Source of the DNA: a virus
Length of the DNA stretch: 64,000 nucleotides
Strand: one strand, 5' to 3'
IMG/VR virus record: IMGVR_UViG_3300044608_002890
In this document: piece by piece, positions 3,881-57,621 of the stretch
How positions within the stretch are numbered: the first letter of the stretch is position 1
Layout of the letters: each line of letters opens with the position of its first letter
Program-made: the position numbers and the translations under genes
Notes under the pieces: generated by a model
Told to the model about the DNA's origin: nothing
The model's database searches: none
What the model saw: only the letters and a program-made list of their open reading frames with translations

Positions 3881-4014
3881 TGTACACTCGCAGTCCGAAG
3901 GATAGTTTTTTGAGATTCATGCAAAATGCCTATGCCGATACCAATCTAACTCTAGCAGAGATTGTTGTGTTGGTCTTATGCGTAATTTTGGGGATATATT
4001 ATGTCTTTGTCTAA
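3880..4014 (+). CDS. possible small membrane peptide (44 aa)
   Basis: MYTRSPKDSFLRF...IVVLVLCVILGIYYVFV; one TM segment, overlaps the next start. Confidence 0.35.
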   Translation: MYTRSPKDSFLRFMQNAYADTNLTLAEIVVLVLCVILGIYYVFV

Positions 4015-4426
4015 AGAACCATTCTTCAGCATAACAGCTCGTGATTGTGAGTGGAGTTATACCCGGGGCACCGGTGCCGGTGGACAGAAGCGCAACAAGA
4101 CCAGTTCCGCTGTCCATTGCATTCACAAGGCATCCGGAGCCCACGGATATAGCGAAAGCAGCAGAAGTCAGCTTGACAATCGGAAAGATGCCTTTAAAAA
4201 GATGGCCGAGACCGATAAGTTTAAACGATGGATTCACATTGAATACATGAAGCGAACCGGAGAGTATTTAGAAGCCGAAAGACAGTTGGAAAAAAGCTTG
4301 ACAAAAGTTCGTCTAGAGGTTAAAATAGATGGACGATGGACAGAAGTGCGAGCCGACCAGCTTGTAGATGATCCAGATAATTTTGATTTTAGTTTCCTAG
4401 AGGAGAGTCCAGATGGGCAGCGATAA
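4001..4426 (+). CDS. peptide chain release factor-like peptidyl-tRNA hydrolase (RF-1 domain, ArfB/YaeJ-like)
   Basis: TRGTGAGGQKRNKTSSAVHCIH with GGQ motif; SRSQLDNRKDAF. Confidence 0.9.
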   Translation: MSLSKEPFFSITARDCEWSYTRGTGAGGQKRNKTSSAVHCIHKASGAHGYSESSRSQLDNRKDAFKKMAETDKFKRWIHIEYMKRTGEYLEAERQLEKSLTKVRLEVKIDGRWTEVRADQLVDDPDNFDFSFLEESPDGQR

Positions 4427-10956: not shown

Positions 10957-10968
10957 TAAATATATTTA
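10957..10968. promoter_or_regulatory. palindromic back-to-back late promoters TAAATATATTTA
   Basis: Perfect 12-bp palindrome giving TAAATA on both strands between divergent genes. Confidence 0.5.
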
Positions 10969-12200
10969 TGGAAACCAAATTAGCAACCATAGTTTGTAGC
11001 GATGTCATTGGCTACAGTAGTTTGATGCAGGCCGACGAAGAAGGCACGCTTCGTCGCCTGGATGCCTGTCGTGCCATCATAGATGGTTTAATTAGCGAAC
11101 ACAAGGGCAGATTGTTTAATACTGGCGGCGACAGCATCTTAGTGGAGTTTGCCAGCTCCGTAGACGCCGTGCGGTTCAGCATAGCCATGCAAGAACACAT
11201 GCGCAAACTCAACAATGGCATGCGTTGGCGCATAGGCATGCACATGGGTGAGGTATGGATCTATGGAACCAATCTCATGGGCGACGCAGTCAACCTAGCA
11301 GCTCGCACCGAAAGTCTAGCCGACTATGGTGGGGTGACCATGACCAGCGAAGTTCATAAACTGGTAGCTTCCAAGATAAAAGATCAGAAATTCATCAGCC
11401 GTGGCATGCAGGAATTCAAGAATGTTGCTCCCATGGAAATCTGGAGCATTGACATACCGGGTGCAGAACCCAATCCACATCTAGCCAAAGCAACAAAACG
11501 TCCCGAAGTAACTTCAACCAAGAGTCATGCTGAATTGATAGCCGCAGTTGTCAACGATCAAGCAGCACGAAACCGAAATATCAACGATGCTCTTGCATTC
11601 AAACAAGATGGCAAGATGGGTCCAGCTACTCGCATACTCATGTGGCGTGTGAGTAAACGAGACATGCAGGCCCTGGATGAACTCATAAGCATGAGTCAAA
11701 AAAATCTAGTACCCACAGAACTCAAGCCCTATGTGTATGCAGTATTCAAAGAATTTTGCAACAAAATAACCAGTGATCTGGCTCTTAAGATTGTAGACAT
11801 TGTAGAGAATGATAGTCGCAGTCTTGCCATGCAGTTTCTCAAACAAGCTGCCAAGGTCAATGAACAGGCCAGCTATAAACTAGCCATGATGGTTTTCACA
11901 GATCCGCATAGCAGTTCTACCGAAATCGATGGCGTCATAGGTGACTTAAAAGAAAGCGCCATGAAGCGCCGAGTACCGGCCATGATGAGTTTGGGCAAGT
12001 ACTACATGCAGATTGGTGACAAGAAAAATGCTTTTAGATGGCTCTATGCTGCTCGTGCCGAGCACGATAAAGAAGCACAGAATTTGCTGGAATCATTGAA
12101 CAAGACCATTAGCAAAAGCGATTTCAATAACTACAAGACCGATGGTGATGCATTGGTGGATGAAATTAAATTCATTGATGAAAATAGGATGCGACAATGA
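10968..12200 (+). CDS. class III nucleotidyl cyclase domain fused to a Sel1/TPR-like helical region
   Basis: IVCSDVIGYS, NTGGDSILVEF, WRIGMHMGEV, GDAVNLAARTES; C-terminal AMMSLGKYY...KNAFRWLYAA. Confidence 0.85.
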   Translation: METKLATIVCSDVIGYSSLMQADEEGTLRRLDACRAIIDGLISEHKGRLFNTGGDSILVEFASSVDAVRFSIAMQEHMRKLNNGMRWRIGMHMGEVWIYGTNLMGDAVNLAARTESLADYGGVTMTSEVHKLVASKIKDQKFISRGMQEFKNVAPMEIWSIDIPGAEPNPHLAKATKRPEVTSTKSHAELIAAVVNDQAARNRNINDALAFKQDGKMGPATRILMWRVSKRDMQALDELISMSQKNLVPTELKPYVYAVFKEFCNKITSDLALKIVDIVENDSRSLAMQFLKQAAKVNEQASYKLAMMVFTDPHSSSTEIDGVIGDLKESAMKRRVPAMMSLGKYYMQIGDKKNAFRWLYAARAEHDKEAQNLLESLNKTISKSDFNNYKTDGDALVDEIKFIDENRMRQ

Positions 12201-31925: not shown

Positions 31926-31933
31926 TATAAATA
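31926..31933 (+). promoter_or_regulatory. T4-type late promoter TATAAATA
   Basis: Exact T4 late consensus upstream of 31959. Confidence 0.8.
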
Positions 31934-31958: not shown

Positions 31959-34157
31959 ATGGAATTTAAGACTTTCATTACCGAAGGCAAGCGCGACACC
32001 GTAGTGTTCAGTCATGGTCGCATGAATCCCGTAACCGTAGGCCATCAGAAAATGGTCGAAGCCGGTCAGAAGCTAGCCCAAAGGCTCAATGCTGACTATG
32101 AACTCAGCATCACTCATAGTCACGATCCCAAGAAAAATCCCCTGAGTGTTGATCAAAAGCTCAAGCATGTCAAACGAGCCTTTCCCAAGGTCAAAGTAAC
32201 AGCTACCAGCAAAGAAACCCCTAGCTTCTTGCATCAGGCCAAGCGTCTGCATCAGCAAGGCTATCAGCATCTGGTCATGGTGGCTGGTTCGGATCGGGTA
32301 CAGGAATATCACGACACTCTGCACAAGTACAATGGACATCCAGACTTTTATAATTTCAAAAGCATCCGTGTGCCCAATGCCAAGGAAATGCACAAGCTGG
32401 CTGGAGTAAGTCTAGAGAGAGATCCTGACAGCGAAGGTGCCGAAGGCATGAGTGCCAGCAAGATGCGAGCTCATGCTGCCAACAATGACTATGCAGAATT
32501 CCGCAAAGGCGTACCTGCGCATTTCAGCGATGCTCAGGCTCGTGAGCTGTACAACGATGTGCGTCAAGGCCAAGTCCGAAAAGAAAGTCGTGATCTCCGT
32601 CAGATCTATGTCAACGGAGAAATATATAATCTAGGCGACCGAGTCAATTGCGGTAAGCAGCTTGCAGAGATAGTATACAGGGGTTCGACCTATGTAACTT
32701 TGCAGCTAGAAGACCACACCACGGAGAAATATTGGATAGCCGATCTCGAAGAACGATCGGGACAATACTATACCAAAACCGGAAGGTTAAAGCAAAACCC
32801 AACAAATCCTAGTGGGCTGTCTAAGAAATATTCGGGCGAACTATCTCATGCTACGCAGTTAGCTCGTCGCCAACATTTCAAGAAACATGGTGCCAAGGCC
32901 AGCTCTGATGCCAGCGCCTATGTACCTGCGCCTGGCGACACTGAAGCCACCACTAAACTCAGCAAATACACCAAACGCTATCACGAACGATATCGTGTTC
33001 GTGAACAACATCTGCCCTGGATACTCATGTCAGCCGAACAGCGCATGATCATCAAGGAATCCGAACAGCAATTAAGTTTCAATGGCTATACAACGGTCAA
33101 CCTAGATCTTTGTCCAGGTGCAGTGATCACCCTCAAACAGGTCATAGACAATCCTGCTCTGAATCCCGAATTTGTCATCAAAGCCATACAGGCTACGGAT
33201 GCCATGCTGGGTGTAGAACGCGAAGCCATGAATCAGGGTTTTGCCACCACAGAACTCATACATGATTTTACCATGTACATGGGCATAGCTCATGATACCC
33301 TGCACTTGTTGGGTTTGACCGATGCCGACTTTGCCACCAAATACGGCAAGAATTGGTTTGAAACGCACATGCGTAAAATGTCAGAGCTGGGCATGCACAA
33401 CGATGGCATCATGATGCAGCAATATGGAACGCATCTGCCCGTAGAGCAAGGAGAGGTTGAAGAAAGCATGAAACCCATAAAAAGCACTCACGCCGTGCAG
33501 AGCATTCTTTTGCACCGAACCGATGGCAAAACTATCAAACGCCATAACTTAGTCAAGAAACTAGACTTCAAAGACGATACGGAAAACAGCAAAATGGATA
33601 CAGAAATCAAAGAAGCTGCTGATGCCGCTCTTAGCAAAAAAGCATCTGAGAGTGGTGTTAGCCTGGGTACCTTGCGTCAGGTCTACAAGCGTGGCGTAGC
33701 GGCCTGGCGCACTGGCCACAGACCCGGAACTACTCCGCAGCAATGGGGCATGGCCAGAGTCAACAGCTACATCACCAAAGGCAAAACCTATCACACTGCA
33801 GACAAAGACCTGCGTGAAGCCGAAGAAGCCCAGAATTTGCCTGACAATCAAAACATTAAAAAAATGGGTCCCTACAAGCACATGGGCGATCCACAGCGCG
33901 ATGAACGCGATATTAATTTTAACGATGGCAAAGACGTTTTTCATGGCATAGACAAAGCCGTGACCGACGAAGTTGGTTTCGATGGCAAGCCCGTAGGATT
34001 TGTTAGCTTCAAGAGTTTCATGCACGAGCCTGAAAACATCAAAACAACTGCTCAACACGATGCTGCACGAGCCAGCATTCATGCAGCTCAGGTTACTGAT
34101 TTCGCCCAGCACGGTCCAGCCTATAGAGCCCAAGTCAAAGCACGTAAAATGGAGTAG
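31959..34157 (+). CDS. cytidylyltransferase-like (HxGH) nucleotidyltransferase with modular C-terminal domains
   Basis: GRMNPVTVGHQK, VAGSDRV, MSASKMR; C-terminal KYTKRY and GVAAWRTGHRPG modules. Confidence 0.85.
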   Translation: MEFKTFITEGKRDTVVFSHGRMNPVTVGHQKMVEAGQKLAQRLNADYELSITHSHDPKKNPLSVDQKLKHVKRAFPKVKVTATSKETPSFLHQAKRLHQQGYQHLVMVAGSDRVQEYHDTLHKYNGHPDFYNFKSIRVPNAKEMHKLAGVSLERDPDSEGAEGMSASKMRAHAANNDYAEFRKGVPAHFSDAQARELYNDVRQGQVRKESRDLRQIYVNGEIYNLGDRVNCGKQLAEIVYRGSTYVTLQLEDHTTEKYWIADLEERSGQYYTKTGRLKQNPTNPSGLSKKYSGELSHATQLARRQHFKKHGAKASSDASAYVPAPGDTEATTKLSKYTKRYHERYRVREQHLPWILMSAEQRMIIKESEQQLSFNGYTTVNLDLCPGAVITLKQVIDNPALNPEFVIKAIQATDAMLGVEREAMNQGFATTELIHDFTMYMGIAHDTLHLLGLTDADFATKYGKNWFETHMRKMSELGMHNDGIMMQQYGTHLPVEQGEVEESMKPIKSTHAVQSILLHRTDGKTIKRHNLVKKLDFKDDTENSKMDTEIKEAADAALSKKASESGVSLGTLRQVYKRGVAAWRTGHRPGTTPQQWGMARVNSYITKGKTYHTADKDLREAEEAQNLPDNQNIKKMGPYKHMGDPQRDERDINFNDGKDVFHGIDKAVTDEVGFDGKPVGFVSFKSFMHEPENIKTTAQHDAARASIHAAQVTDFAQHGPAYRAQVKARKME

Positions 34158-34159
34158 TA

Positions 34160-34594
34160 ATGGAAGAATTAATTCAAGCATTAAGACAAACGTTGGCCAA
34201 TACCTTTGGCATGTATTTCCAGGCTCATAGCGGTCACTGGAATGTCGAAGGACCGGACTTTGCTGAGTATCATGATTTCTTGGGCGAGCTCTATGAAGAG
34301 TTGCACGGAGCCGTAGATCCCATAGCCGAGTACATCAGAATACTAGATGCCTATGCTCCAGGCGACATCAGCGAAATGATGATGTCCACCAGCATTAGTG
34401 CCATGGGCGTTAAAAGCAACCCCAGGGACATTGTTAGCAGCCTAGTGGACAGCAACAACATCTGTCTTTTGACTCTCATGACAGCCTTTAAAGCCAGTGA
34501 AGCTGCTGGAGAAGTTGGTTTGTCAGACTTTTTAACACAACGCATCAATGCACACCAGAAACATGCCTGGCAGATGCGTAGCATGCTAAAATGA
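34160..34594 (+). CDS. dps: Dps-family ferritin-like protein
   Basis: HSGHWNVEGPDFAEYHDFLGELYEE...DPIAEYIR...HQKHAWQMRS. Confidence 0.9.
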   Translation: MEELIQALRQTLANTFGMYFQAHSGHWNVEGPDFAEYHDFLGELYEELHGAVDPIAEYIRILDAYAPGDISEMMMSTSISAMGVKSNPRDIVSSLVDSNNICLLTLMTAFKASEAAGEVGLSDFLTQRINAHQKHAWQMRSMLK

Positions 34595-35079
34595 AAAGCT
34601 TCGTAGAAATCATTTGGGAATCAAAATCCCAAGATGACGTTATTTCGGACACCGATCTCGAACAAATGGCCGAGGCTTTAACCTGGGACGACATTGCGGA
34701 TCTTTACGATGCCGATGAACTCATCGAAGTCGACGAAGCCGAAGAAGACATCAATGAAGCTCTAAGTGCTCAGGCTCGTCTGCGTAAGCGCATGACCTTT
34801 GCCAGACACAAGGCCAAGCGGGTGCAATTGCGTGGCATCAAGCTTCGCAGAGCCAGTGACTTTGCCACTCTCAAGAAACGTGCCACCAATGCTGCACGCA
34901 GATCCATAACCAAAAGATTGCTCAGAGGTCGTGACAAAGCGTCTCTGAGTCCAGCGGAAAAAGATAGAATAGAGCAACAAGTACGTCGCATGAAGAACAT
35001 ACAGAACATTCTGGCTCAGCGAATGATTCCCAAGATTAAAAAGATTGAGCAGGGTCGTCTGTACAAGAAACGCAAATGA
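34591..35079 (+). CDS. putative internal head protein (acidic N-terminus, basic C-terminus)
   Basis: MKSFVEI; INE/ALSAQARLRKR. Confidence 0.75.
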   Translation: MKSFVEIIWESKSQDDVISDTDLEQMAEALTWDDIADLYDADELIEVDEAEEDINEALSAQARLRKRMTFARHKAKRVQLRGIKLRRASDFATLKKRATNAARRSITKRLLRGRDKASLSPAEKDRIEQQVRRMKNIQNILAQRMIPKIKKIEQGRLYKKRK

Positions 35080-35498
35080 AAAAATTCTTTGAACTAAGAA
35101 ACGAACTCTATGAATCTGCTTGCCCTGTGGCTACGCAGCATCTGGACACCAACGTTAAAAATCGCCAGCATGCCATTGATGAATATCTGTACGGCCCAGC
35201 CAACCCCAACGAGCCCGGTGATCATTGGAATAAAATAGCCAAGGTCTGGAGCATCAGTGTAGAAAATGCCAAGACCATGACCTGTGGCAACTGTGCGGCA
35301 TTTGATATTTCGGACAAGATGCGCAAGTGCATAGAAGTGGGCATGCAAGGTAAAGAAAAATCGGCCGATGCTCTGGCCACCGCAGAAAAAGCAGACCTGG
35401 GTTACTGCAACATCTTACATTTCAAATGTGCTGGTACCAGAACCTGTAAGCTATGGTTGACCGACGGTCCCATAGATAATAAAGACCGAACCATGTAA
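35076..35498 (+). CDS. Cys-containing putative internal protein
   Basis: MKKFFELR; CGNCAAF, GYCNILHFKCAGTRTC. Confidence 0.75.
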   Translation: MKKFFELRNELYESACPVATQHLDTNVKNRQHAIDEYLYGPANPNEPGDHWNKIAKVWSISVENAKTMTCGNCAAFDISDKMRKCIEVGMQGKEKSADALATAEKADLGYCNILHFKCAGTRTCKLWLTDGPIDNKDRTM

Positions 35499-36106
35499 TG
35501 TTCAGCATTGCCAGAATCGATTTTATAACCGATCCTGTAATTAACGTAGGCATAGATGATGTTTTTTACAAGGATCCGCAGGCCATGGACTTCTTTGATA
35601 AAGATGGCTATGAGCTCACTAGACTCGAACAGACCTATTATGCCTGCCAGGGACTAGAAGTAAGTCGTTATACTGCTGGTCATCCCGGAGTATTTCAGCC
35701 CTGGATTGCCGTTGATCATGAATATTTGAGCATAGATCATAGCTGTGCCATGTATCGCTGCAATTTTGAGGGTATGGCCCTGGCACAGATTCAACGACAG
35801 ACCAAGAAGTATCCCCGCGTAGGTTGGTTATTGACCTGCAAGAAGAAATGGGGGCTGGATTTAAACATAGATTATTGTGATGGCAACATAGCACTAGAAG
35901 TTATACATCTAGAATGGGATAGTCCTAGTCTAGAGTACATAGAACAAGAAAGAGTCAAAGCCGAAGAATTAGTTAAGAATACAGATTGGGTGGATGCTGC
36001 CAAGCGAGTTTGGTCACTACGAGATGAATGGCAAAACCTCAAAGGCTGGTATGCGCAGGCTCATTGGAAAGCAACCTATTTTGGATTAGAAAGGCCCTGG
36101 TATTAA
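35498..36106 (+). CDS. hypothetical protein
   Basis: 202-aa ORF, TAATG-coupled; FFDKDGYELT, KWGLDLNID. Confidence 0.75.
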   Translation: MFSIARIDFITDPVINVGIDDVFYKDPQAMDFFDKDGYELTRLEQTYYACQGLEVSRYTAGHPGVFQPWIAVDHEYLSIDHSCAMYRCNFEGMALAQIQRQTKKYPRVGWLLTCKKKWGLDLNIDYCDGNIALEVIHLEWDSPSLEYIEQERVKAEELVKNTDWVDAAKRVWSLRDEWQNLKGWYAQAHWKATYFGLERPWY

Positions 36107-38266
36107 ATGAAGACATTCAAAGATCTAAGAACTGTTCAAGAACAAGCATCACCCATGATCAAACCACCTACGAATGAGTTTGGTAAAAAAGAAGATGCCT
36201 TTGCCCATGCCAAGCAACATGGTGGTAAGGTGTTTAAAAAGACATTTACCCATCCTACTTCTGGTATGAAGAATGTTAGTTATGTTGTTAGAGAAGATGC
36301 CGAACAGATTGATGAGCTAAAAAGAACAACACTTGCCAATTATGTTAGCAAGGCAGCAGGTAGCTATGGTCGTGACAAACAGAACATAGGCAGAGAAAGC
36401 CCAGATGGTACCGTGGCCAAGGCTCGACCAGAACTCAAACGCGCAGTAAAGAATCGTCTAACTGGTATCAATCGTGCAGCCGAAAGACTGGCCAAAGAAG
36501 AAACCGAAATCGACGAAGCATCCAAGAAACCTAATGCCACTACTCGTCATCTAAGACAATATCCAGTTAGTGATAAGGACGTGGCTAAACCTGTTAAGCA
36601 GTCAGAGTATCAACATCATGTCGTATCAAAGTTAGATGGTAATGTTTTGGCCTCTTATAAATCACGGGAAGATGCGCATAAAAATGCTCATGGTAATCCA
36701 GTTGTTTCCGGTTCTCTAGAAACCATCGGTGATCGTAAATATGTTAGAGAGCAAAGTGAGTCTAAACCCGTAACATATTACTCATTAGTACATAAAGCAA
36801 CTAATAAAGTACTAAGCACACATAAAGATTTAGAATCTGCTAAAGACGAACATAGGGGCATGGATCAGGGTGAACGAGCACATTACAGAATTGCCACGAC
36901 AACAAAAGCGCCTAAGTCTTTTAGTATGAAAGAAGATGCCGAAGGTGTGGCGGAAGACATTTCCTCTACTAAAAAGAAAATATCAAAATACGAAGAACTT
37001 GCGTTGGCTGCGAATCGTGCTGGTGATGATGCAAAAAGCAAACAATATCAACAAAAGATTCAAGTACTTAAACAAAAAATGTCTCAAGGTGTGGCAGAAG
37101 AAAATATTCTTGAAGGTGCATACGAAAAATCTGAAGAAAATAAACGTTCTGCTGATGCTGCTAAGAAGCAAGGTGATATGTTCGCCCATCACCTACACAT
37201 GGCTGACCATCACGATAATTTAGCTCAATGGCATGCTGAGAGAGGTCGTCATAGCGTAGCAGATAGTCATGCAGCCAAGGCTGAAGAACATCAAGAAAAG
37301 GCTATGGAACATAAAAAGCAAGGTGTGGCGGAAGCTGCATTCAAAGATCCTAGTCCTATGATGAAAGACAGCATCAAGCAAGATAGAATTCGCAGTCTAA
37401 AAAATCTTATTGCTGTTGCCAAAGTAAAAGGCGTCCATCATAAAGTCAAAGAATATGAATTAGAATTGAAAAAATTGAAGGAAACGACGGAAGTGACAGA
37501 AGCCGGTGCATTTTCCTATGGAGCTAAACCACCACGTAAAGGTTCGGTTGCCTACAATGCTCTCATGAAACGCAAAGAGCAGGATAAAAATCGTGTCAAA
37601 GAAATCGAAGCCATTGGTACTAAAAATCATCATGTAGGTGTAGCCAAAGTCACAAAAGCTGTGGCGGAAGGCTATACCGGTCGTGAAACCAAAGACGGAA
37701 CCTGGCGTGTGTTCAAGGATGGGCAAGCGGTAGCAGTGGCGGGACCATTCAAGAGCAGAGATGAAGCACATGCCTGGATTAAAAAACACAAGCAAGGTGT
37801 CTCGGAAGCCAAAGATACTGAGATGTACAAGTACATAGATCAGTCTGGTGGTCATCAAATAAAAGGAAAATCAGGAACCTATGTAGGTTATACGCATTCT
37901 GCCACCAAAGGCAAGGGTGCCAACATTCTAAAGCATAACACGACAAAAAAGTATTATGCAGCAGGTGGTTCATCCACAGCATTTACTGCAAAAACTACTC
38001 TACACGATACACCCCAAGCAGCAGCCAGGGCATATCACAAAGGTAACCTAGCCGAACAAGACGAAAAAGAAGCACAAGAGTATGATTACGAAGGCGACAT
38101 GGCTAGATCCGATCTGCGCAGCATTATATTCAATGCACAAGAGGTGCATGACATGCTGGAGCCCAACACCAATTTACCTGAGTGGGTACAGGCCAAGATT
38201 ACCAAGGCCGAGGACTACATGAGTTCCGTAAGATCCTATATGAAGGCCGAAAATGAAGACCTTTAA
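36107..38266 (+). CDS. modular putative internal head polyprotein with repeated GV(A/S)E sites
   Basis: MKTFKDLR; GVAE/AVAE/GVSE x5; C-terminal EYDYEGDMA...LPEWVQAKI. Confidence 0.8.
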   Translation: MKTFKDLRTVQEQASPMIKPPTNEFGKKEDAFAHAKQHGGKVFKKTFTHPTSGMKNVSYVVREDAEQIDELKRTTLANYVSKAAGSYGRDKQNIGRESPDGTVAKARPELKRAVKNRLTGINRAAERLAKEETEIDEASKKPNATTRHLRQYPVSDKDVAKPVKQSEYQHHVVSKLDGNVLASYKSREDAHKNAHGNPVVSGSLETIGDRKYVREQSESKPVTYYSLVHKATNKVLSTHKDLESAKDEHRGMDQGERAHYRIATTTKAPKSFSMKEDAEGVAEDISSTKKKISKYEELALAANRAGDDAKSKQYQQKIQVLKQKMSQGVAEENILEGAYEKSEENKRSADAAKKQGDMFAHHLHMADHHDNLAQWHAERGRHSVADSHAAKAEEHQEKAMEHKKQGVAEAAFKDPSPMMKDSIKQDRIRSLKNLIAVAKVKGVHHKVKEYELELKKLKETTEVTEAGAFSYGAKPPRKGSVAYNALMKRKEQDKNRVKEIEAIGTKNHHVGVAKVTKAVAEGYTGRETKDGTWRVFKDGQAVAVAGPFKSRDEAHAWIKKHKQGVSEAKDTEMYKYIDQSGGHQIKGKSGTYVGYTHSATKGKGANILKHNTTKKYYAAGGSSTAFTAKTTLHDTPQAAARAYHKGNLAEQDEKEAQEYDYEGDMARSDLRSIIFNAQEVHDMLEPNTNLPEWVQAKITKAEDYMSSVRSYMKAENEDL

Positions 38267-38558
38267 AGAACTCAGGGAAGCCACCTACAAGGGCAAGACC
38301 GTGCCCTTGAACAAGCCCATGGCTGGTGATATTAAAAAACGCAAGGTCTATGTTGATCCAGATGGTGACGGCAAAGCCAAGAAAGTAGAATTTGGTGATA
38401 CTACGGGGCTGACCATCAAGACATCGGACCCCAATCGTCGCAGAAATTTCAGAGCGCGTCATAATTGTGACCAGAAGAAGGATAAAACAACAGCAGGATA
38501 TTGGTCCTGTAAAGCCTGGAGTGCACCTACAGTCAAACAGGGACTGGGCACTAAATGA
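38253..38558 (+). CDS. DUF6321-like protein
   Basis: MKTFKELRE; VEFGD...RRNFRARHNCD...AGYWSCKAW. Confidence 0.75.
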   Translation: MKTFKELREATYKGKTVPLNKPMAGDIKKRKVYVDPDGDGKAKKVEFGDTTGLTIKTSDPNRRRNFRARHNCDQKKDKTTAGYWSCKAWSAPTVKQGLGTK

Positions 38559-39295
38559 AAACTCTAGCAGAGCTACGGGAAAAATGGTCCAACAAATACA
38601 AACGCAGCATAGATTGCAACGACCCTAAGGGCTTCAGTCAACGTGCGCATTGTCAGGGTAAAAACAAAACCAATGAAGGTGTTAGTACTTCATATAATAA
38701 GCCCGATGAGCAAACTGGTGTAATGTCGTACCATGATCTAGAAGCTCATATCGGTAAACCAAAGGCTCTTTTGATTGCTAAGCACGAACAATTTCAAAAA
38801 CATATGTTTCCGCAAATGAGTTTAGGGGCTCAGGTAGGTTTTAAGTTTGAAAGACGTCATGGTTTTGAACATGTTTATGCTGTTCATGGTCCCAATAAGT
38901 ACGTTGACAAAGAAAAGCCTGGATACAGAACCATGCTTAGATTTCATTTAAGTGGTAGTGGTAAAAAGGTTACTCAGGTTGATCGTTCTGTTAATCACAA
39001 CAATGAACGACATCATGAAGGTAGTCTAGTTTGGGATCATCGTGAGACCTGGGAACATCCGGTAAACAAACGTGAGGATAAACAAATAGCTAAGAGAATG
39101 GCTGCATCTAAAGCTACTAATGAAAATTTTCAAGACGGACGTAATCCACAGGATCGGGGTGATAGTGCTAGACACGGCATACCCAAGGGAGCTACCATAG
39201 CTCTCCTAAAGAAAATTCGTAGCAGTCCCAATTCTAGTCCACGCAAGAAACAGCTTGCGCATTGGCAGATAAATATGCGAAAGGGTCGCACCTAA
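38555..39295 (+). CDS. modular putative internal protein
   Basis: MKTLAELRE; KWSNKYKRSIDC...FSQRAHC; NFQDGRNP module. Confidence 0.75.
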   Translation: MKTLAELREKWSNKYKRSIDCNDPKGFSQRAHCQGKNKTNEGVSTSYNKPDEQTGVMSYHDLEAHIGKPKALLIAKHEQFQKHMFPQMSLGAQVGFKFERRHGFEHVYAVHGPNKYVDKEKPGYRTMLRFHLSGSGKKVTQVDRSVNHNNERHHEGSLVWDHRETWEHPVNKREDKQIAKRMAASKATNENFQDGRNPQDRGDSARHGIPKGATIALLKKIRSSPNSSPRKKQLAHWQINMRKGRT

Positions 39296-39320: not shown

Positions 39321-39851
39321 ATGCCTAATCTTAAATTAAGTCAATTGCCTGTAGCCAACAATGCTGTAGCCGGTGATTATGTTTATCTTGTGCAAGGTGG
39401 TGTTAGCAAGAAACTAACTGCTTCGAATCTGTTAGTTGGTCTGAACATGAACATCATACCCAGCACCAATGATGTCTATAGCATGGGCAACAGCACCAAT
39501 AGATTCCGAGCCATCTATGTTGCTTCGGATGGAATCTTCCTGGGCAATACCAACCTCAGAGCCGATGCCAATGGCAGTGTAACTTTTTCCGGCAATCTAG
39601 CAGCCAATGCTTTTGTTTCATTGGGATCAGGCGTACCAACTTTGCGCAGCAATAGCAACATCAATCTTAGAGCAAATTCCAATGGCGGTGGTGGAGCGGT
39701 TGTCATCACCAACAGTCCTCTGAGATTTACTGGTTTCACCACAACACAAAGAAATTCGTTGATTGGCGTAGCCAATGGTGATGTAATCTATAACACTACC
39801 ACTAATAAACTTCAGGCCTATGTCAATAATAGCTGGACGGATTTACACTAA
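39321..39851 (+). CDS. tail-fibre-associated-like structural protein (paralog A)
   Basis: MPNLKLSQLP; C-terminal GDVIYNTTTNKLQAY...WTDLH. Confidence 0.75.
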   Translation: MPNLKLSQLPVANNAVAGDYVYLVQGGVSKKLTASNLLVGLNMNIIPSTNDVYSMGNSTNRFRAIYVASDGIFLGNTNLRADANGSVTFSGNLAANAFVSLGSGVPTLRSNSNINLRANSNGGGGAVVITNSPLRFTGFTTTQRNSLIGVANGDVIYNTTTNKLQAYVNNSWTDLH

Positions 39852-40381
39852 TGCCTGATAATTTAACCATTGATGCCTCATCAGCATCCGGAGCCGATAC
39901 TACCTATCTGGTAAAAGTCGATCCTGGATTGACCAGCAATCAGATCAGTATTGCCAATCTTCTGAACAGCACGAGTGGTAATGTCGGATTTACTACTAGC
40001 AATATCCATACTTTGGGTAATACAAATCGTAAATTTCGCGGCATTTATCTGTCTCAGGAAATCAACGCCAACTCTCTGGTGATTAATGAGACTGCTGGAA
40101 CCATCAACTTCAAGTCCAATGTATCAGCCAATGGTTTTGAAATTGTTAACAGCACAGCGGAACCTGCCCTAAAAAGCTTGTTTGATTTGCGCATATATGC
40201 CAATGCCAACAGCAGAGGTGGCGCGGTTGTGGTTACCAATAGCCCTCTGAGGCTTGCAAGTTTTACTACGACCGATCGCGACAATCACATTATTTCACCA
40301 GCCAACGGTGATGTAATTTTAAACATAACCACCAATAAAATACAGGTGTTTGCTGATAAAGTTTGGACGGATTTACACTAA
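39851..40381 (+). CDS. tail-fibre-associated-like structural protein (paralog B)
   Basis: Shares GGAVVVTNSPLR and GDVILNITTNKIQ...WTDLH with paralog A. Confidence 0.75.
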   Translation: MPDNLTIDASSASGADTTYLVKVDPGLTSNQISIANLLNSTSGNVGFTTSNIHTLGNTNRKFRGIYLSQEINANSLVINETAGTINFKSNVSANGFEIVNSTAEPALKSLFDLRIYANANSRGGAVVVTNSPLRLASFTTTDRDNHIISPANGDVILNITTNKIQVFADKVWTDLH

Positions 40382-42354
40382 TGAGCACAGCCAACGTAAT
40401 CTATAATTTCCAAGGACACGAAGATCTTTTCAGATCAGATCTCTTTGCCCAGATTAATAATCTACCCCCTAATCTGTCTTCTGGTCACTTGTATAATCCT
40501 ACGTCAGCAGATTTGGTGGATGGCAAACGTGAATATATTGTTATTGCGCACGATGGATGCCTAGAATCTCTTGAACAGGATCTAGAACTTGATACTACAG
40601 CCAACAACGAAGTTGATGGCAACATTGTACCTGATAGGCCTGTAGAAGTTGCTAATCGCAGAATCACATCAGATATTCAAACACATTACTGGCTAACCGA
40701 TCAAGAAGCTGCAAATCTTCAGTCTGATCCTAGAGTCCGATTTATTCATCCCACCATTGAACATGATACTGGTCTAGCTCTAACCCAGTTTGGTTTGGAC
40801 TATCAGCCGTATTATTCATTTCAAAGCAGATACAATGTAATTCGCCAATCGATAAACTTTCCTGGCGGAGCTCGTAATTGGGCCCTGCACCTATGCGGTA
40901 ATGGCAATGTTGATTATGGTTCTGGTCTTACTAGTCCGTCTGATGATCGCACCTATCGTTACATATTGGATGGCGATGGTGTGGATGTGGTCATATCTGA
41001 CGGTGGTCTTGATCCAGCGCACATGGAATGGTTGGATCCAACAGGTAGGGTTAGTAGATTCCAACGAGTTAACTGGTATACCCTTGCTGGCATCAGTGGA
41101 GCACAGGCTACAGCCCTACAGGCCAACATCAACAACGGTACATTTTACCAATCCGATGATGGTGGCCATGGCATGCACGTTGCCAGCATAACTGCAGGCA
41201 GAGTGTTTGGTTGGGCCAAACGGGCCAACATCTACAACATGAAATTTTTTGGCTTTGGCGCCATTGGTGTTGATGAAGGCCTAGATCTCATAAGACTCTG
41301 GCACAAAAATAAACCCATAGATCCCAAAACCGGACAAAAAAGACCCACCATAGTCAATGGAAGTTGGGGGGTATCTAGATTTGTTGCCATACCTAAGCAA
41401 AAGGGGTTTGAACATCCAAGTTTTTTCCCGGGTTCCGGTAATAAAGTTTACAGTGGTGTTGCCGCAGCCAACATTACCTACAGAGGTACTAATATTGGTA
41501 CAGTCAATGTATTCGATGATGTTGCCAATACTGGCCTTAACGGAACCACAAGATTAGATAATTTTGATGCGGGCTCAAATTCTTCGGGAGTTCCTATAAC
41601 AATTAGATTTTTTGGCTTCAATGGACAAGTTGGCTCTTGGGATACTTCAGCTGAATCAATGATCAAAGAGGGCGTAATCTTTGTACACGCCGCAGGTAAC
41701 GATCATCATAAACTAGATGTTCCAGGTGGTCCTGACTATAACAATCAAATTTCAGTTTGGTATACCCCAATATCTTTTCTTCCCCCAATTTTTCAACAAT
41801 CTTATTATTATCATAGACCAAGTAGCCCTGACCTTGGTAACGTCATACACGTGGGCAGTGTTAACAGCATATGTTCCCAAAAACCCAATATTTTAGAAAG
41901 CTCACCATTCAGTGCCTGGGGACCAGGAGTAACTGTCTGGGCGCCTGGCTCGGCAATTGTAGCTGCTTATTCTGCCAAGTACGGTAATCTGCCGGCTAAT
42001 GATGATTTTGTCTATAAAAATCCCACGACCGGAGCATCAGTCGCTGGCAACGCAATGGTAGCCTTGTCTGGTACCAGCATGGCTGCTCCACAGGTAACTG
42101 GGTTTTTGGCCCTATATCTGCAAGCCAACCCCGCAGCCAACCAGTTGGCCTGTTTGCAATGGTTACAAAATGTAGGCAGCAACAGCAACTTACTGTATAC
42201 AGGCAATGTTGATGATTATGCCAATGCCTACATAGTTGGTAATTCTGGTAAATTCATGTATACACCTTGGAAAACAGGCGTTGCTACGCAGTCTACGCAA
42301 GACAACATAGAGGGTAGTTTGGTTCTAGAGAATTTAACCATCAACACCATCTGA
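40381..42354 (+). CDS. S8 (subtilisin-like) serine peptidase
   Basis: VDVVISDGG (Asp), HGMHVAS (His), AAGN oxyanion, GTSMAAPQVTG (Ser). Confidence 0.93.
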   Translation: MSTANVIYNFQGHEDLFRSDLFAQINNLPPNLSSGHLYNPTSADLVDGKREYIVIAHDGCLESLEQDLELDTTANNEVDGNIVPDRPVEVANRRITSDIQTHYWLTDQEAANLQSDPRVRFIHPTIEHDTGLALTQFGLDYQPYYSFQSRYNVIRQSINFPGGARNWALHLCGNGNVDYGSGLTSPSDDRTYRYILDGDGVDVVISDGGLDPAHMEWLDPTGRVSRFQRVNWYTLAGISGAQATALQANINNGTFYQSDDGGHGMHVASITAGRVFGWAKRANIYNMKFFGFGAIGVDEGLDLIRLWHKNKPIDPKTGQKRPTIVNGSWGVSRFVAIPKQKGFEHPSFFPGSGNKVYSGVAAANITYRGTNIGTVNVFDDVANTGLNGTTRLDNFDAGSNSSGVPITIRFFGFNGQVGSWDTSAESMIKEGVIFVHAAGNDHHKLDVPGGPDYNNQISVWYTPISFLPPIFQQSYYYHRPSSPDLGNVIHVGSVNSICSQKPNILESSPFSAWGPGVTVWAPGSAIVAAYSAKYGNLPANDDFVYKNPTTGASVAGNAMVALSGTSMAAPQVTGFLALYLQANPAANQLACLQWLQNVGSNSNLLYTGNVDDYANAYIVGNSGKFMYTPWKTGVATQSTQDNIEGSLVLENLTINTI

Positions 42355-57000: not shown

Positions 57001-57621
57001 TCCAACAGCAGTAACATTGGCAACATCAACAGCTGGCTGCGTACAACCAACAGCAACATCGGCAACATCAACGGTTGGGTAAGTTCCAATAGCACCAACA
57101 TCGGTAACCTTAATGCCTGGACCAGTAATAATAGTGCCAACATTGGCAACATAAACACTTGGCTAAGAACCATAACCACCACTGGCGTTGCCGAAGGTGC
57201 TAACCTGTACTACACTGATGATCGTGTATGGGGTAATGTTGGTACCAACATCGGTAACCTAAATGCCTGGGTCAGCTCTAATAGTACCAACATTGGCAAC
57301 CTTAATAGTTGGGTTAGCTCCAACAGCAGCAACATCGGTAACCTAAATGCCTGGACTAGCTCTAATAGTACCAACATCGGTAACCTAAACGCCTGGACTA
57401 GTTCCAACAGCAGTAACATCGGCAACCTAAATAGTTGGGTCACCAATGTATACACCAGCATACCCACCAGCGCCAACAACATCAACAGCATAACCACCCT
57501 GGCAGCTCCAGCTACTACGGGCGATGCTGGTACAGCTGGCGAAGTAAGATTTGATGGTAATTATTTCTATGTGTGCATAGCCAGCAATACCTGGCGACGC
57601 GCTAACCTACATACCTGGTAA
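54088..57621 (+). CDS. large fibre-like protein: N-terminal coiled coil, beta-rich middle, 14-aa repeat stalk
   Basis: ~520 aa of heptads, GGGGA hinge, EGxNLY(F/Y/H)T motifs, NIGNLNAWTSSNSS repeats, C-terminal YFYVCIASNTWRR. Confidence 0.85.
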   Translation: MDLKKFIAFNSEAKSEAHDPAVLESYARSLEVVNENLGKMLLMSAEIEKIREDLKHVVKEGEFKGAMVALLSQIEPLREEIARQVNTEVQAIRESFRTLTTKTTSLQKLVDEAVDQQNLRIINHFETQEQKLLDLRQAVEDRADLGPMKTKLEHVAEDVDYLKKLDIYDNLNATQEAAVALGQHIDDIDGNVVKLAKEILEFKQDMLDTSLVLERSTNARYQEALEALDENLRNVTTLQENLQDIEKRYDDLNKELTESNLAHDVATAELGKVLENIQKANHEHAEVLDEQVTHIVGNITTLKQELDALGQGLDQGTEAHAQSVARIQELTTHIPRLDARIDEHVGLVEQEIKSLSKTLLEQNTRIQDSHRDLKAQVAKVITDGKMLLEREQSRIDGDTLFEDRYDRIIKRVEEVEGMLADIDAKTEHNDVIYEHVRTSSDRLDAHADRLMQKLQETANQSISDLKKKTKLLNEAAPTDIAGINAGLGVDTRDLDKKFVTFQQLRDHYRQFVDRVQRQLAENIGGGGAQFLWDLDDVDINTVRYPGNGELLIWSGALRKWISGNAFTISTVQGNLTVQESIEVLGNANIYGFLTVGGNIILGDATTDNFTLGADVNSDILPDVSSTYNLGSVSQTWGNIHVDSVYVDNLWAAGNIMPATDNVHDLGNATHRWRDLYLSGNSLYIGTTSFHDTGAQLEIKYNGNVALRSDTTGNIRANLFIGDLDGRVSNIANHTTDALREGTANLYHTVARVRTNIFAGTGVLYNNVTGQIRISQNVDPEVDVQFSNVTITGNLNVLGAAANFEANILNVQDPSIIFGDGNPSDTYDLGIHGEYVSSGTRYSGLFRDASADGRWKLYANLTNMPQNFVDTSSISFNFANLELNHVHGRVTLIDNFTTTDLVEGANLYFTNTRVWANVGTNIGNLNSWVSSNSSNIGNINSWLRTTNSNVGNLNAWTSSNSSNIGNLNAWTSSNSSNIGNINSWLRTTNSNIGNINGWVSSNSTNIGNLNAWTSNNSANIGNINTWLRTITTTGVAEGANLYYTDDRVWGNVGTNIGNLNAWVSSNSTNIGNLNSWVSSNSSNIGNLNAWTSSNSTNIGNLNAWTSSNSSNIGNLNSWVTNVYTSIPTSANNINSITTLAAPATTGDAGTAGEVRFDGNYFYVCIASNTWRRANLHTW
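56830..57450 (+). repeat. 42-bp tandem repeats encoding NIGN(L/I)N(A/S)W(T/V/L)SSNS(S/T)
   Basis: e.g. AACATTGGCAACCTAAACGCCTGGACTAGTTCCAACAGCAGT; two blocks split by an EGANLYYT spacer. Confidence 0.9.

Follow-up and report, generated by a model that had tools for sequence, protein, structure and literature searches.

How can a single phage gene come to hold a dozen unrelated protein modules and keep one reading frame through all of them? The question is raised by an open reading frame (ORF) at 36107-38266 (+ strand, 719 aa) of a 64,000-nucleotide stretch of DNA, IMG/VR virus record IMGVR_UViG_3300044608_002890, which we call the window and which comes from an uncultured T4-like phage. The ORF is a mosaic of about 12 modules of 29-83 aa, and a short linker that reads GVAE, or nearly so, recurs between them. 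A first-pass annotation, made from the letters alone, had proposed that this linker is constrained as DNA and serves both as a micro-homology for recombination and as a cleavage site for gp21, the prohead protease. Our analysis suggests that the ORF probably encodes a capsid-targeted cargo polyprotein of a freshwater T4-like phage, a chain of unrelated modules in which the linkers very probably act as recombination joints.

The start of the ORF directly adjoins the stop of the upstream gene. Its modules are mostly basic (pI 9.3-10.3 in seven of them), with an acidic one at the C-terminus, and an all-against-all BLASTP of the window modules returned no pair at E <0.01. Thus, the modules are unrelated at the sequence level, as the first-pass annotation had described them, although the size range of 30-70 aa given there has to be widened to 29-83 aa, and its remark that several are AT-rich holds in the sense of an uneven composition (GC 0.35-0.52). 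A beta-beta-alpha pattern that we thought common to several modules was an impression that BLASTP did not support. An exhaustive phmmer search with the 719-aa protein found 3075 proteins at E<=1e-3, 60 of them at E<=1e-30, and the matches covered differing segments of the query, in varying places and orders. Among the 120 homologues listed, from a collection of 5.8 billion proteins, there was neither a named protein nor a co-linear full-length orthologue. The protein matched 0 PHROG families, and in Pfam only DUF4170 appeared, with a score of 17 bits that fell short of the cut-off (25).

Searching the 64 kb for CAAGGTGTGGCGGAAG with up to 3 mismatches gave 5 matches against 0.45 expected, a number that 0 of 100 shuffles reached, and a 15-mer version of the search had the same outcome. 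All five matches were on the + strand, inside the ORF and in one frame, with none elsewhere in the window; the five linkers of the first-pass annotation are therefore all where it had placed them. They translate as GVAE three times and as AVAE and GVSE once each. Copy 1 (36941-36956) is GAAGGTGTGGCGGAAG, read E-GVAE-D; copy 2 (37085-37100) is CAAGGTGTGGCAGAAG, read Q-GVAE-E; and copy 3 (37319-37334) is exact CAAGGTGTGGCGGAAG, read Q-GVAE-A. Copies 4 (37655-37670, AAAGCTGTGGCGGAAG, K-AVAE-G) and 5 (37793-37808, CAAGGTGTCTCGGAAG, Q-GVSE-A) are decayed, with 2 mismatches each. Ahead of the same GYTGRE module that follows copy 4, relatives carry GGTGTGGCGGAAGGCTATAC, and the joint orthologous to copy 5 in L017 is undecayed GGTGTGGCGGAA (L-numbers denote related loci). 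The other junctions ending in Glu that had been reported are all present on the same strand: QIDE at 36305-36316 (aa 67-70), EIDE at 36506-36517 (aa 134-137; L005, L006 and L007 retain EIDE/ASKKPNAT), NILE at aa 333-336, next after copy 2, EVTE at 37490-37501 (aa 462-465) and NLAE at 38045-38056 (aa 647-650). All junctions in the window fit a hydrophobic-x-Glu rule, and the protein contains 17 [L/I/V]-x-E sites.

The linker is an instance of a discrete in-frame 21-mer, AAGCAAGGTGTGGCGGAAGGC, which is read K-Q-G-V-A-E-G. We analyzed its codons in the mosaic ORFs of 80 related IMG/VR loci and the window. The codons GGT GTG GCG GAA were used in 12 of 18 distinct GVAE contexts, against a background in those ORFs of 19% GTG among Val codons and 8% GCG among Ala codons, so that the recurrence of GTG-GCG-GAA pointed out by the first-pass annotation is stronger than it had claimed. 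One of the 18 contexts, at 57184 of the window in an unrelated 1177-aa protein, reads GGC GTT GCC GAA. As a control, 37 distinct QIDE junctions were found to vary freely at silent sites (CAG/CAA, ATT/ATC, GAT/GAC, GAA/GAG); QIDE and the similar non-GVAE junctions are conserved as protein only. A second class of junction, (K)EEVEQIDE(L) or ELDE(A), was strongly over-represented as protein and likewise free at silent sites.

A degenerate scan of IMG/VR with AARCARGGNGTNGCNGARGG, a pattern that demanded K-Q before and G after GVAE, returned at least 141 matches in at least 126 stretches. Among the matches listed, 131 of 141 were open in frame, giving at least 114 distinct contexts, and exact GGTGTGGCGGAA was present in 83 of these 114. 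A logo of 120 contexts had sharp bounds at 21 nt, with the seven free positions at 73-97% consensus; the flanks carried zero information and no conserved hairpin. In 185,579 prokaryote species genomes the exact 21-mer was found in 2 stretches only, one of them a lone match in an isolate of Rhizobiales, close to the number expected by chance (0.27 matches by our own estimate), and the other a contig of a metagenome-assembled genome with two copies. Five jumbo-phage contigs of 199-262 kb carried 2-3 exact 16-mer copies each. Taken together, these sequence comparisons make it very likely that the linker copies are DNA homologues that were copied and not reinvented.

If modules are exchanged at such copies, the joints between them should be visible as breakpoints among relatives. 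We aligned the ORF with the best 150 of the 3075 phmmer matches as ungapped high-scoring segment pairs (HSPs). Within 5 residues of the 17 [LIV]xE sites lay 57.1% of 597 internal HSP ends, against 22.6% for random positions and 32.9% for other Glu residues, and 0 of 5000 draws reached 57.1%; since the matches are related to one another, this statistic is no strict probability. HSP ends also clustered at the QIDE junction. In the same 150 homologues the distinct 16-residue contexts with GVAE numbered 77, which is 33 times what would be expected, and identical left flanks met different right flanks, and vice versa.

At the DNA level, homology between the window and its relatives begins and ends inside the 15-16 nt of the linker. 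In L015 and L017, window residues 280-332 are joined directly to 517-569 at 96-98% nucleotide identity, so that the module left of copy 2 leads into the module after copy 4, and the alignment pairs overlap by the 15-nt linker. L005 and L007 join residues 216-284 directly to 517-568, which takes the module left of copy 1 to the module after copy 4, again with an HSP overlap of 15 nt. A permutation was found in L003-L006, where the NLAE-ending module (567-650) comes before the one that in the window stands next after the leader. In L221, a jumbo-phage polyprotein (2665-3082), a 201-nt module stands in tandem from linker to linker, in 2.1 copies at 99%; one linker copy there has GTC GCA in place of GTG GCG. 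Across 119 IMG/VR junctions (20 residues on each side) we counted 86 left and 105 right module families. All 19 left families with at least 2 members were joined to at least 2 right families, and 10 of the 11 right families of that size were joined to at least 2 left families.

Contigs from four separate lake runs (2020, 2024 and 2025) spanned all five linkers of the window with 0 differences, which shows that the ORF is no assembly chimera. A low-depth variant contig (run X18) agrees with the window as far as 37334, where copy 3 ends, and goes over to another module from there. Because this contig leads from a module ending near residue 164 to copy 3, a different mosaic co-occurs in the same lake sample. 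The variant runs from 36493-36598 through 22 other letters to 37317, at copy 3, and on into a module absent from the window. The first-pass annotation had suggested comparing orthologs for gain and loss of modules at the linker; in the comparison made here, module order was not fixed among relatives, and the linker emerged as a recombination joint, with breakpoints inside it, the L221 duplication and all 19 left families recombined. That modules have been deleted, permuted, duplicated and exchanged exactly at the linker in relatives is well supported by these alignments, and we regard shuffling at the linker as highly probable.

The linker copies thus very probably act as in-frame recombination joints, a step that the sequence comparison shows. 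Exchange, slippage or unequal crossing-over between copies deletes, duplicates, permutes or imports a module and leaves the frame intact. Every junction formed by an exchange between two linkers would inherit the linker sequence, and decayed copies such as 4 and 5 would fall out of the exchange pool. The minimal efficient homology for bacterial recombination is about 20-30 bp, which would suit a 21-mer.

We asked what the shuffled protein might be for. T4 internal proteins (IPs) are textbook proteins that are injected with the phage DNA and counter host defences, and T4 IPs are mutually non-homologous. The window ORF begins with a leader at 36107-36142 (+), MKTFKDLRTVQE, which ends V-Q-E and resembles a T4 capsid targeting sequence. 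IPI of T4 starts MKTFKEF...ITE, and IPII and IPIII start MKTYQEFIAE; the leaders of the window are near-identical to IPI at the start (MKTFKELRE and MKTFKDLR against MKTFKEF). The window leader also ends in hydrophobic-x-Glu, with Val here at P3, a likeness of sequence similarity only. A start of the form MKx[FLY]xx[FLI] was found in 39 of 141 Met-started homologues. As in T4, the products are mostly basic, and several such genes stand together in a variable locus of a T4-type phage (polB, UvsX, gp41).

Five genes of the cluster around the ORF, at 34591, 35076, 36107, 38253 and 38555, start with MK[T/S/K][F/L]xE[L/I]... The two upstream genes (34591-35498, +) have the leaders MKSFVEIIWE and MKKFFELRNE. 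Downstream, a 101-aa gene (38253-38558, +) joins the leader MKTFKELRE/A to an ATYKGK... module and matches phrog_7595. The same module is the last one of the polyprotein in L004-L007, where it follows the linker (...KQGVAE/GLELQEAEKNGKKV..., GLELQEAEK...), and it is stand-alone in L008 and L009, behind the leaders MLAFKEWLAE and MLSFKEFIQE. The next gene (246 aa, 38555-39295, +) has the leader MKTLAELRE, and its first module, linker-flanked in jumbo-phage polyproteins, is flanked by VAE in L223, L154 and L193 and stand-alone in L018 and L054. Leader and linker are thus interchangeable, with the same modules either stand-alone behind a leader or joined by the linker. In L004 and L005, leader-like sequences were seen inside long ORFs (…MQKKTFFKLREQ… and …MEKVSFKSFLEE…), which suggests that two leader genes were fused via stop loss; in L003 the same module begins a gene as MKSFFKLREE.

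The cluster extends further upstream, to a cytidylyltransferase-type multi-module protein of 730 aa (31959-34157, +) with the leader MEFKTFITE/G (ATG at 31959) and a DUF5824 domain; its homologues start MKFSDFLRE and MKFKDFLAE. Ahead of it, 26 nt before the ATG, the T4-late-promoter-like TATAAATA (31926-31933, +) heads the packed cluster 31959-39295. Since TATAAATA matches the window twice and 1.97 matches would be expected, its position alone is suggestive and it is a weak hint. The block 31959-39295 looks like a capsid-cargo locus. The block consists of eight tightly packed + strand genes; all but one of them (35498-36106) either begin with a leader like those of T4 IPs or are members of the same mosaic family. 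A Dps/ferritin-like gene also lies in it, at 34160-34594.

In the proposed mechanism, the leader would load the protein into the prohead core, an S77 (gp21-type) prohead protease would cleave leader and joints after their Glu, and the modules set free in this way would stay with the DNA and reach the host in the manner of T4 IPs. Passages of PMC9026906 describe IP leaders of 10-19 residues that target the prohead core and are then removed, T4 core proteins that are cut into several fragments, and cutting by T4 gp21 after Glu in L/I-X-E; passages of PMC5694885 give A-X-E and similar motifs for the related proteases of SPN3US and phiKZ. An S77 protease and Gp23 are encoded in all five long related contigs (126-174 kb), and an S77 protease together with a T4-type Gp23 in 2 of the 5 linker-bearing jumbo contigs, the two that include the head module. 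The propeptides of the relatives' capsid proteins end ...ILTE, ...ALFE and ...ILNE, and those of the jumbo contigs ...NLAE and ...SLME. Targeting of the 719-aa protein to the head seems the likelier case. V-A-E and V-S-E fit the gp21 rule as given in the parts of PMC9026906 that treat it, except that Val replaces Leu/Ile. The cleavage proposed by the first-pass annotation is only consistent with the data; we would put cutting at GVAE by a gp21-type protease at an even chance. That the modules are injected effectors is a more tentative proposal, and the word effector is used by analogy.

A structure was predicted with AlphaFold2 (AF2) from a 46-row MAFFT alignment, after 8 rows with misplaced fragments had been dropped. 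The mean predicted local distance difference test score (pLDDT) was 65.9 and the predicted template modelling (TM) score 0.28, that is, no global fold. Copy 3 has a pLDDT <50 (aa 405-409), copies 4 and 5 are at the edges of stretches with pLDDT <50, copy 1 comes just after one, and at the EVTE junction pLDDT is <50 over aa 463-473. Foldseek of the model against BFVD gave nothing meaningful, with a best TM of 0.15.

Several results weigh against the cargo reading or narrow it. The HSP ends and the linker contexts are not phylogenetically independent. The 21-mer was not found in 50,697 cultured-phage records, the best identity being 18 nt in a blastn search with a 31-nt query. No protease or capsid gene was found within the 64-kb window, and no recognised family was found for any window module. 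At the linker P3 is Val, and not the L/I described for T4 in the portions of PMC9026906 on the cleavage rule; the inferred cleavage sites of the relatives' capsid proteins use Leu, unlike the linker. GVAE copy 2 lies inside a long helix with pLDDT >90, which argues against an exposed linker. As for conservation of the linker as DNA, we compared 68 junction pairs that share a flanking module, and synonymous codon differences were 0.336 in the left flank, 0.264 in the right flank and 0.244 in the linker. The linker value is little below those of the flanks, suggesting that the linker is not frozen by strong purifying selection at that time scale. Thus, recent or continuing copying accounts for the linker data as well as purifying selection on the DNA does, and a uniform consensus across unrelated contexts appears better explained by copying than by strong purifying selection. 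The DNA-level constraint that the first-pass annotation had inferred therefore stands in part: the conservation is real, and the QIDE control varies, but a constraint is unproven.

The Val at P3 and the helix at copy 2 would both be accommodated if the protein were an uncut string of beads, in which the 21-mer is a recombination joint only, K-Q-G-V-A-E-G is tolerated and the match to the protease rule is coincidental. Conservation at the DNA level also shows copying as DNA and not selection on the peptide, and 4 of the 17 [LIV]xE sites (aa 449, 459, 499 and 692) are off module borders. However, joints that are not conserved as DNA end in [LIV]-x-E as well, the same modules occur as separate genes behind cleavable-looking leaders, the leader of the ORF itself resembles T4 capsid targeting sequences, and the joint keeps one frame. 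An uncut protein is therefore unlikely, though it is an explanation to be reckoned with. It is also conceivable that the protein is cut but stays behind, as an accessory scaffold or core protein like T4 gp22, gp67 and gp68, which would be loaded into the prohead, cleaved and expelled and not injected. The protein is predicted to be strongly helical and charged and has many [LIV]xE sites, the cutting of T4 core proteins into several fragments fits, and the relatives' scaffold (gp22-like) genes share the EEVE(E/Q)(L/I)DE motif seen at junctions. Yet those scaffold genes have 4-7 [LIV]xE per 100 aa (EEVEELDE and some VAE among them) against 2.4 in the 719-aa protein, the linker-joined modules of relatives include GNAT and GP88 domains, and a hypervariable module content with no co-linear full-length orthologue among the 120 homologues listed is unsuited to a structural role. 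We consider a scaffold very improbable.

The other two alternatives concern the 21-mer itself. It might be kept for another role in nucleic acid, as the site of an endonuclease or recombinase or as a Shine-Dalgarno-like (AGGUG) pause for folding. The sharp 21-nt limit of conservation between uninformative flanks is of a size that suits a homing-type enzyme, HNH and SegE-like GIY-YIG nucleases are encoded in the window, and the 21-mer contains AGGTG. Such a role seems improbable, however, given that no enzyme was linked to the 21-mer, that among the matches listed it is confined to coding DNA and to one frame, that copies 4 and 5 decay by point mutation, and that deletion, tandem duplication and exchange with linker overlap need just a short homology. 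Assembly artefacts could in principle mimic mosaics by forming chimeras at a shared short repeat, the repeat length being near common assembly k-mers and the relatives all being metagenomic contigs. We give this almost no weight, because the four separate runs repeat the window order over five linkers and because separate contigs share the same alternative junctions at 96-98% identity, not 100% (L015/L017 and L005/L007).

With a cargo polyprotein as the preferred reading, we compared the ORF with known systems. The mature parts have no homology to IPI, IPII, IPIII or Alt of T4 (0 PHROG families; no Pfam match above cut-off); since the T4 IPs lack homology among themselves, this lowers only membership by descent. 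A further difference from the T4 internal proteins is that about 12 modules stand in one gene instead of one, with internal joints that include the conserved 21-mer. Several internal hydrophobic/small-x-Glu sites are also found in T4 gp22, gp67 and gp68 and in the inner-body and ejection proteins of phiKZ and SPN3US, according to passages of PMC9026906 and PMC5694885; these proteins differ in having a conserved, fixed architecture, and those passages describe no DNA-level linker or module exchange. PeSL motifs in hyperplastic regions have been proposed as homology for the insertion, deletion and replacement of genes (PMC2839356, PMC4122927), and a similar role was proposed for conserved elements in T-even IP loci (Repoila et al. 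1994, as cited in a passage of PMC2839356). A PeSL is an intergenic promoter with a stem-loop and moves whole ORFs, whereas the 21-mer is in frame and translated and moves protein modules. Exchange confined to short intragenic motifs is shared with the glycine-rich motifs of gp38 and the conserved boxes of T-even tail-fibre adhesins, an analogy of mechanism and not homology. There, the glycine-rich motifs form the structural core of one domain in fixed order, as portions of PMC3157838 describe them, whereas the 21-mer joins unrelated, independently occurring modules in any order, in genes of many kinds and in many phages. The polyvalent proteins of phages and conjugative elements (Iyer et al. 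2017, PMC5512222) are likewise long multi-module mosaics predicted to enter the host with DNA, but Pfam recognised no signature domain of this kind in the 719-aa ORF, and the main text of PMC5512222 mentions neither linkers nor shuffling nor cyanophages and so describes no shared coded joint. The window differs from all these systems in a translated 21-nt in-frame joint that appears to serve modules in any order, in many genes, in both T4-like and jumbo phages. No published description of the linker was found in literature searches.

To our knowledge, the diversification of injected cargo has been described only for whole genes. In the window, by contrast, what is exchanged is a module of 30-80 aa, and the joint is a translated 21-mer found with identical letters in many uncultured lake phages, jumbo phages included. 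If the joint is a protease site too, evolvability by in-frame shuffling would be coupled to function by release of the modules. The old question of how phages produce and try out new injected proteins would then become directly testable, and there would be a natural design for placing several foreign proteins in T4-type capsids. One could go further and see the 21-mer as a maintained, translated assembly joint that combines a prohead-protease site with the homology by which T4-like and jumbo phages recombine any module with any other in frame, and that builds a community-wide combinatorial library of injected small proteins, perhaps aided by a dedicated enzyme, a possibility that we hold to be rather doubtful. 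The 21-mer also provides an easy means of searching metagenomes for proteins that are candidates for injection.

Of all the modules, the acidic one at the C-terminus (38057-38263, +; EYDYEGDM...LPEWVQ.KIT) is shared most widely, and AF2 models it with confidence as a helical bundle. No other part of the ORF is present in cultured phages, where the module occurs at 50.6% identity in S-WAM2 and S-H9-1, in 179-aa proteins starting MKTFKQLREE. Further occurrences are as a stand-alone protein or within other viral proteins. The ESM Atlas returned only viral clusters of hypothetical proteins for it, in one of which HicA_toxin was present in 95% of members. As for the modules of relatives, Pfam matches at E<=0.001 were obtained in 4 of 12 linker-bearing ORFs, namely GNAT, GP88, DUF6115 and SutA-RBD, the last below its Pfam cut-off. 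ParB-like, cytidylyltransferase-like and ART-like modules that we saw by eye in jumbo-phage relatives were not confirmed by Pfam at E<=0.001.

The window encodes a family-B DNA polymerase, UvsX, a gp41-type helicase, a primase, ThyX and a ribonucleotide reductase (RNR). Its region is syntenic with the variable region of the T4-like cyanophages S-WAM2 and S-H9-1, the common order being a DUF6267 protein, a virion structural protein, the cytidylyltransferase, further genes, the primase and RNR. At least 18 lake-water metagenome runs contained near-identical DNA, each holding at least 95% of the sampled words; in RNA runs about 0.10-0.11 of the sampled words were present. One contig of run X17 skips 35763-35978, upstream of the ORF, with 23 letters on the shorter side. 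After the cargo cluster come tandem 176-aa paralogues (39321-39851 and 39851-40381) with weak matches to endosialidase tail-spike C-termini, followed by a 663-aa subtilase (Peptidase_S8) protein (40363-42354) related to tail-fibre PHROGs. Auxiliary genes at 1670-2677, 4001-4426 and 10968-12200 encode a PstS-like phosphate-binding protein that carries a signal peptide, a protein with an RF-1 domain and one with an adenylate/guanylate cyclase domain, respectively.

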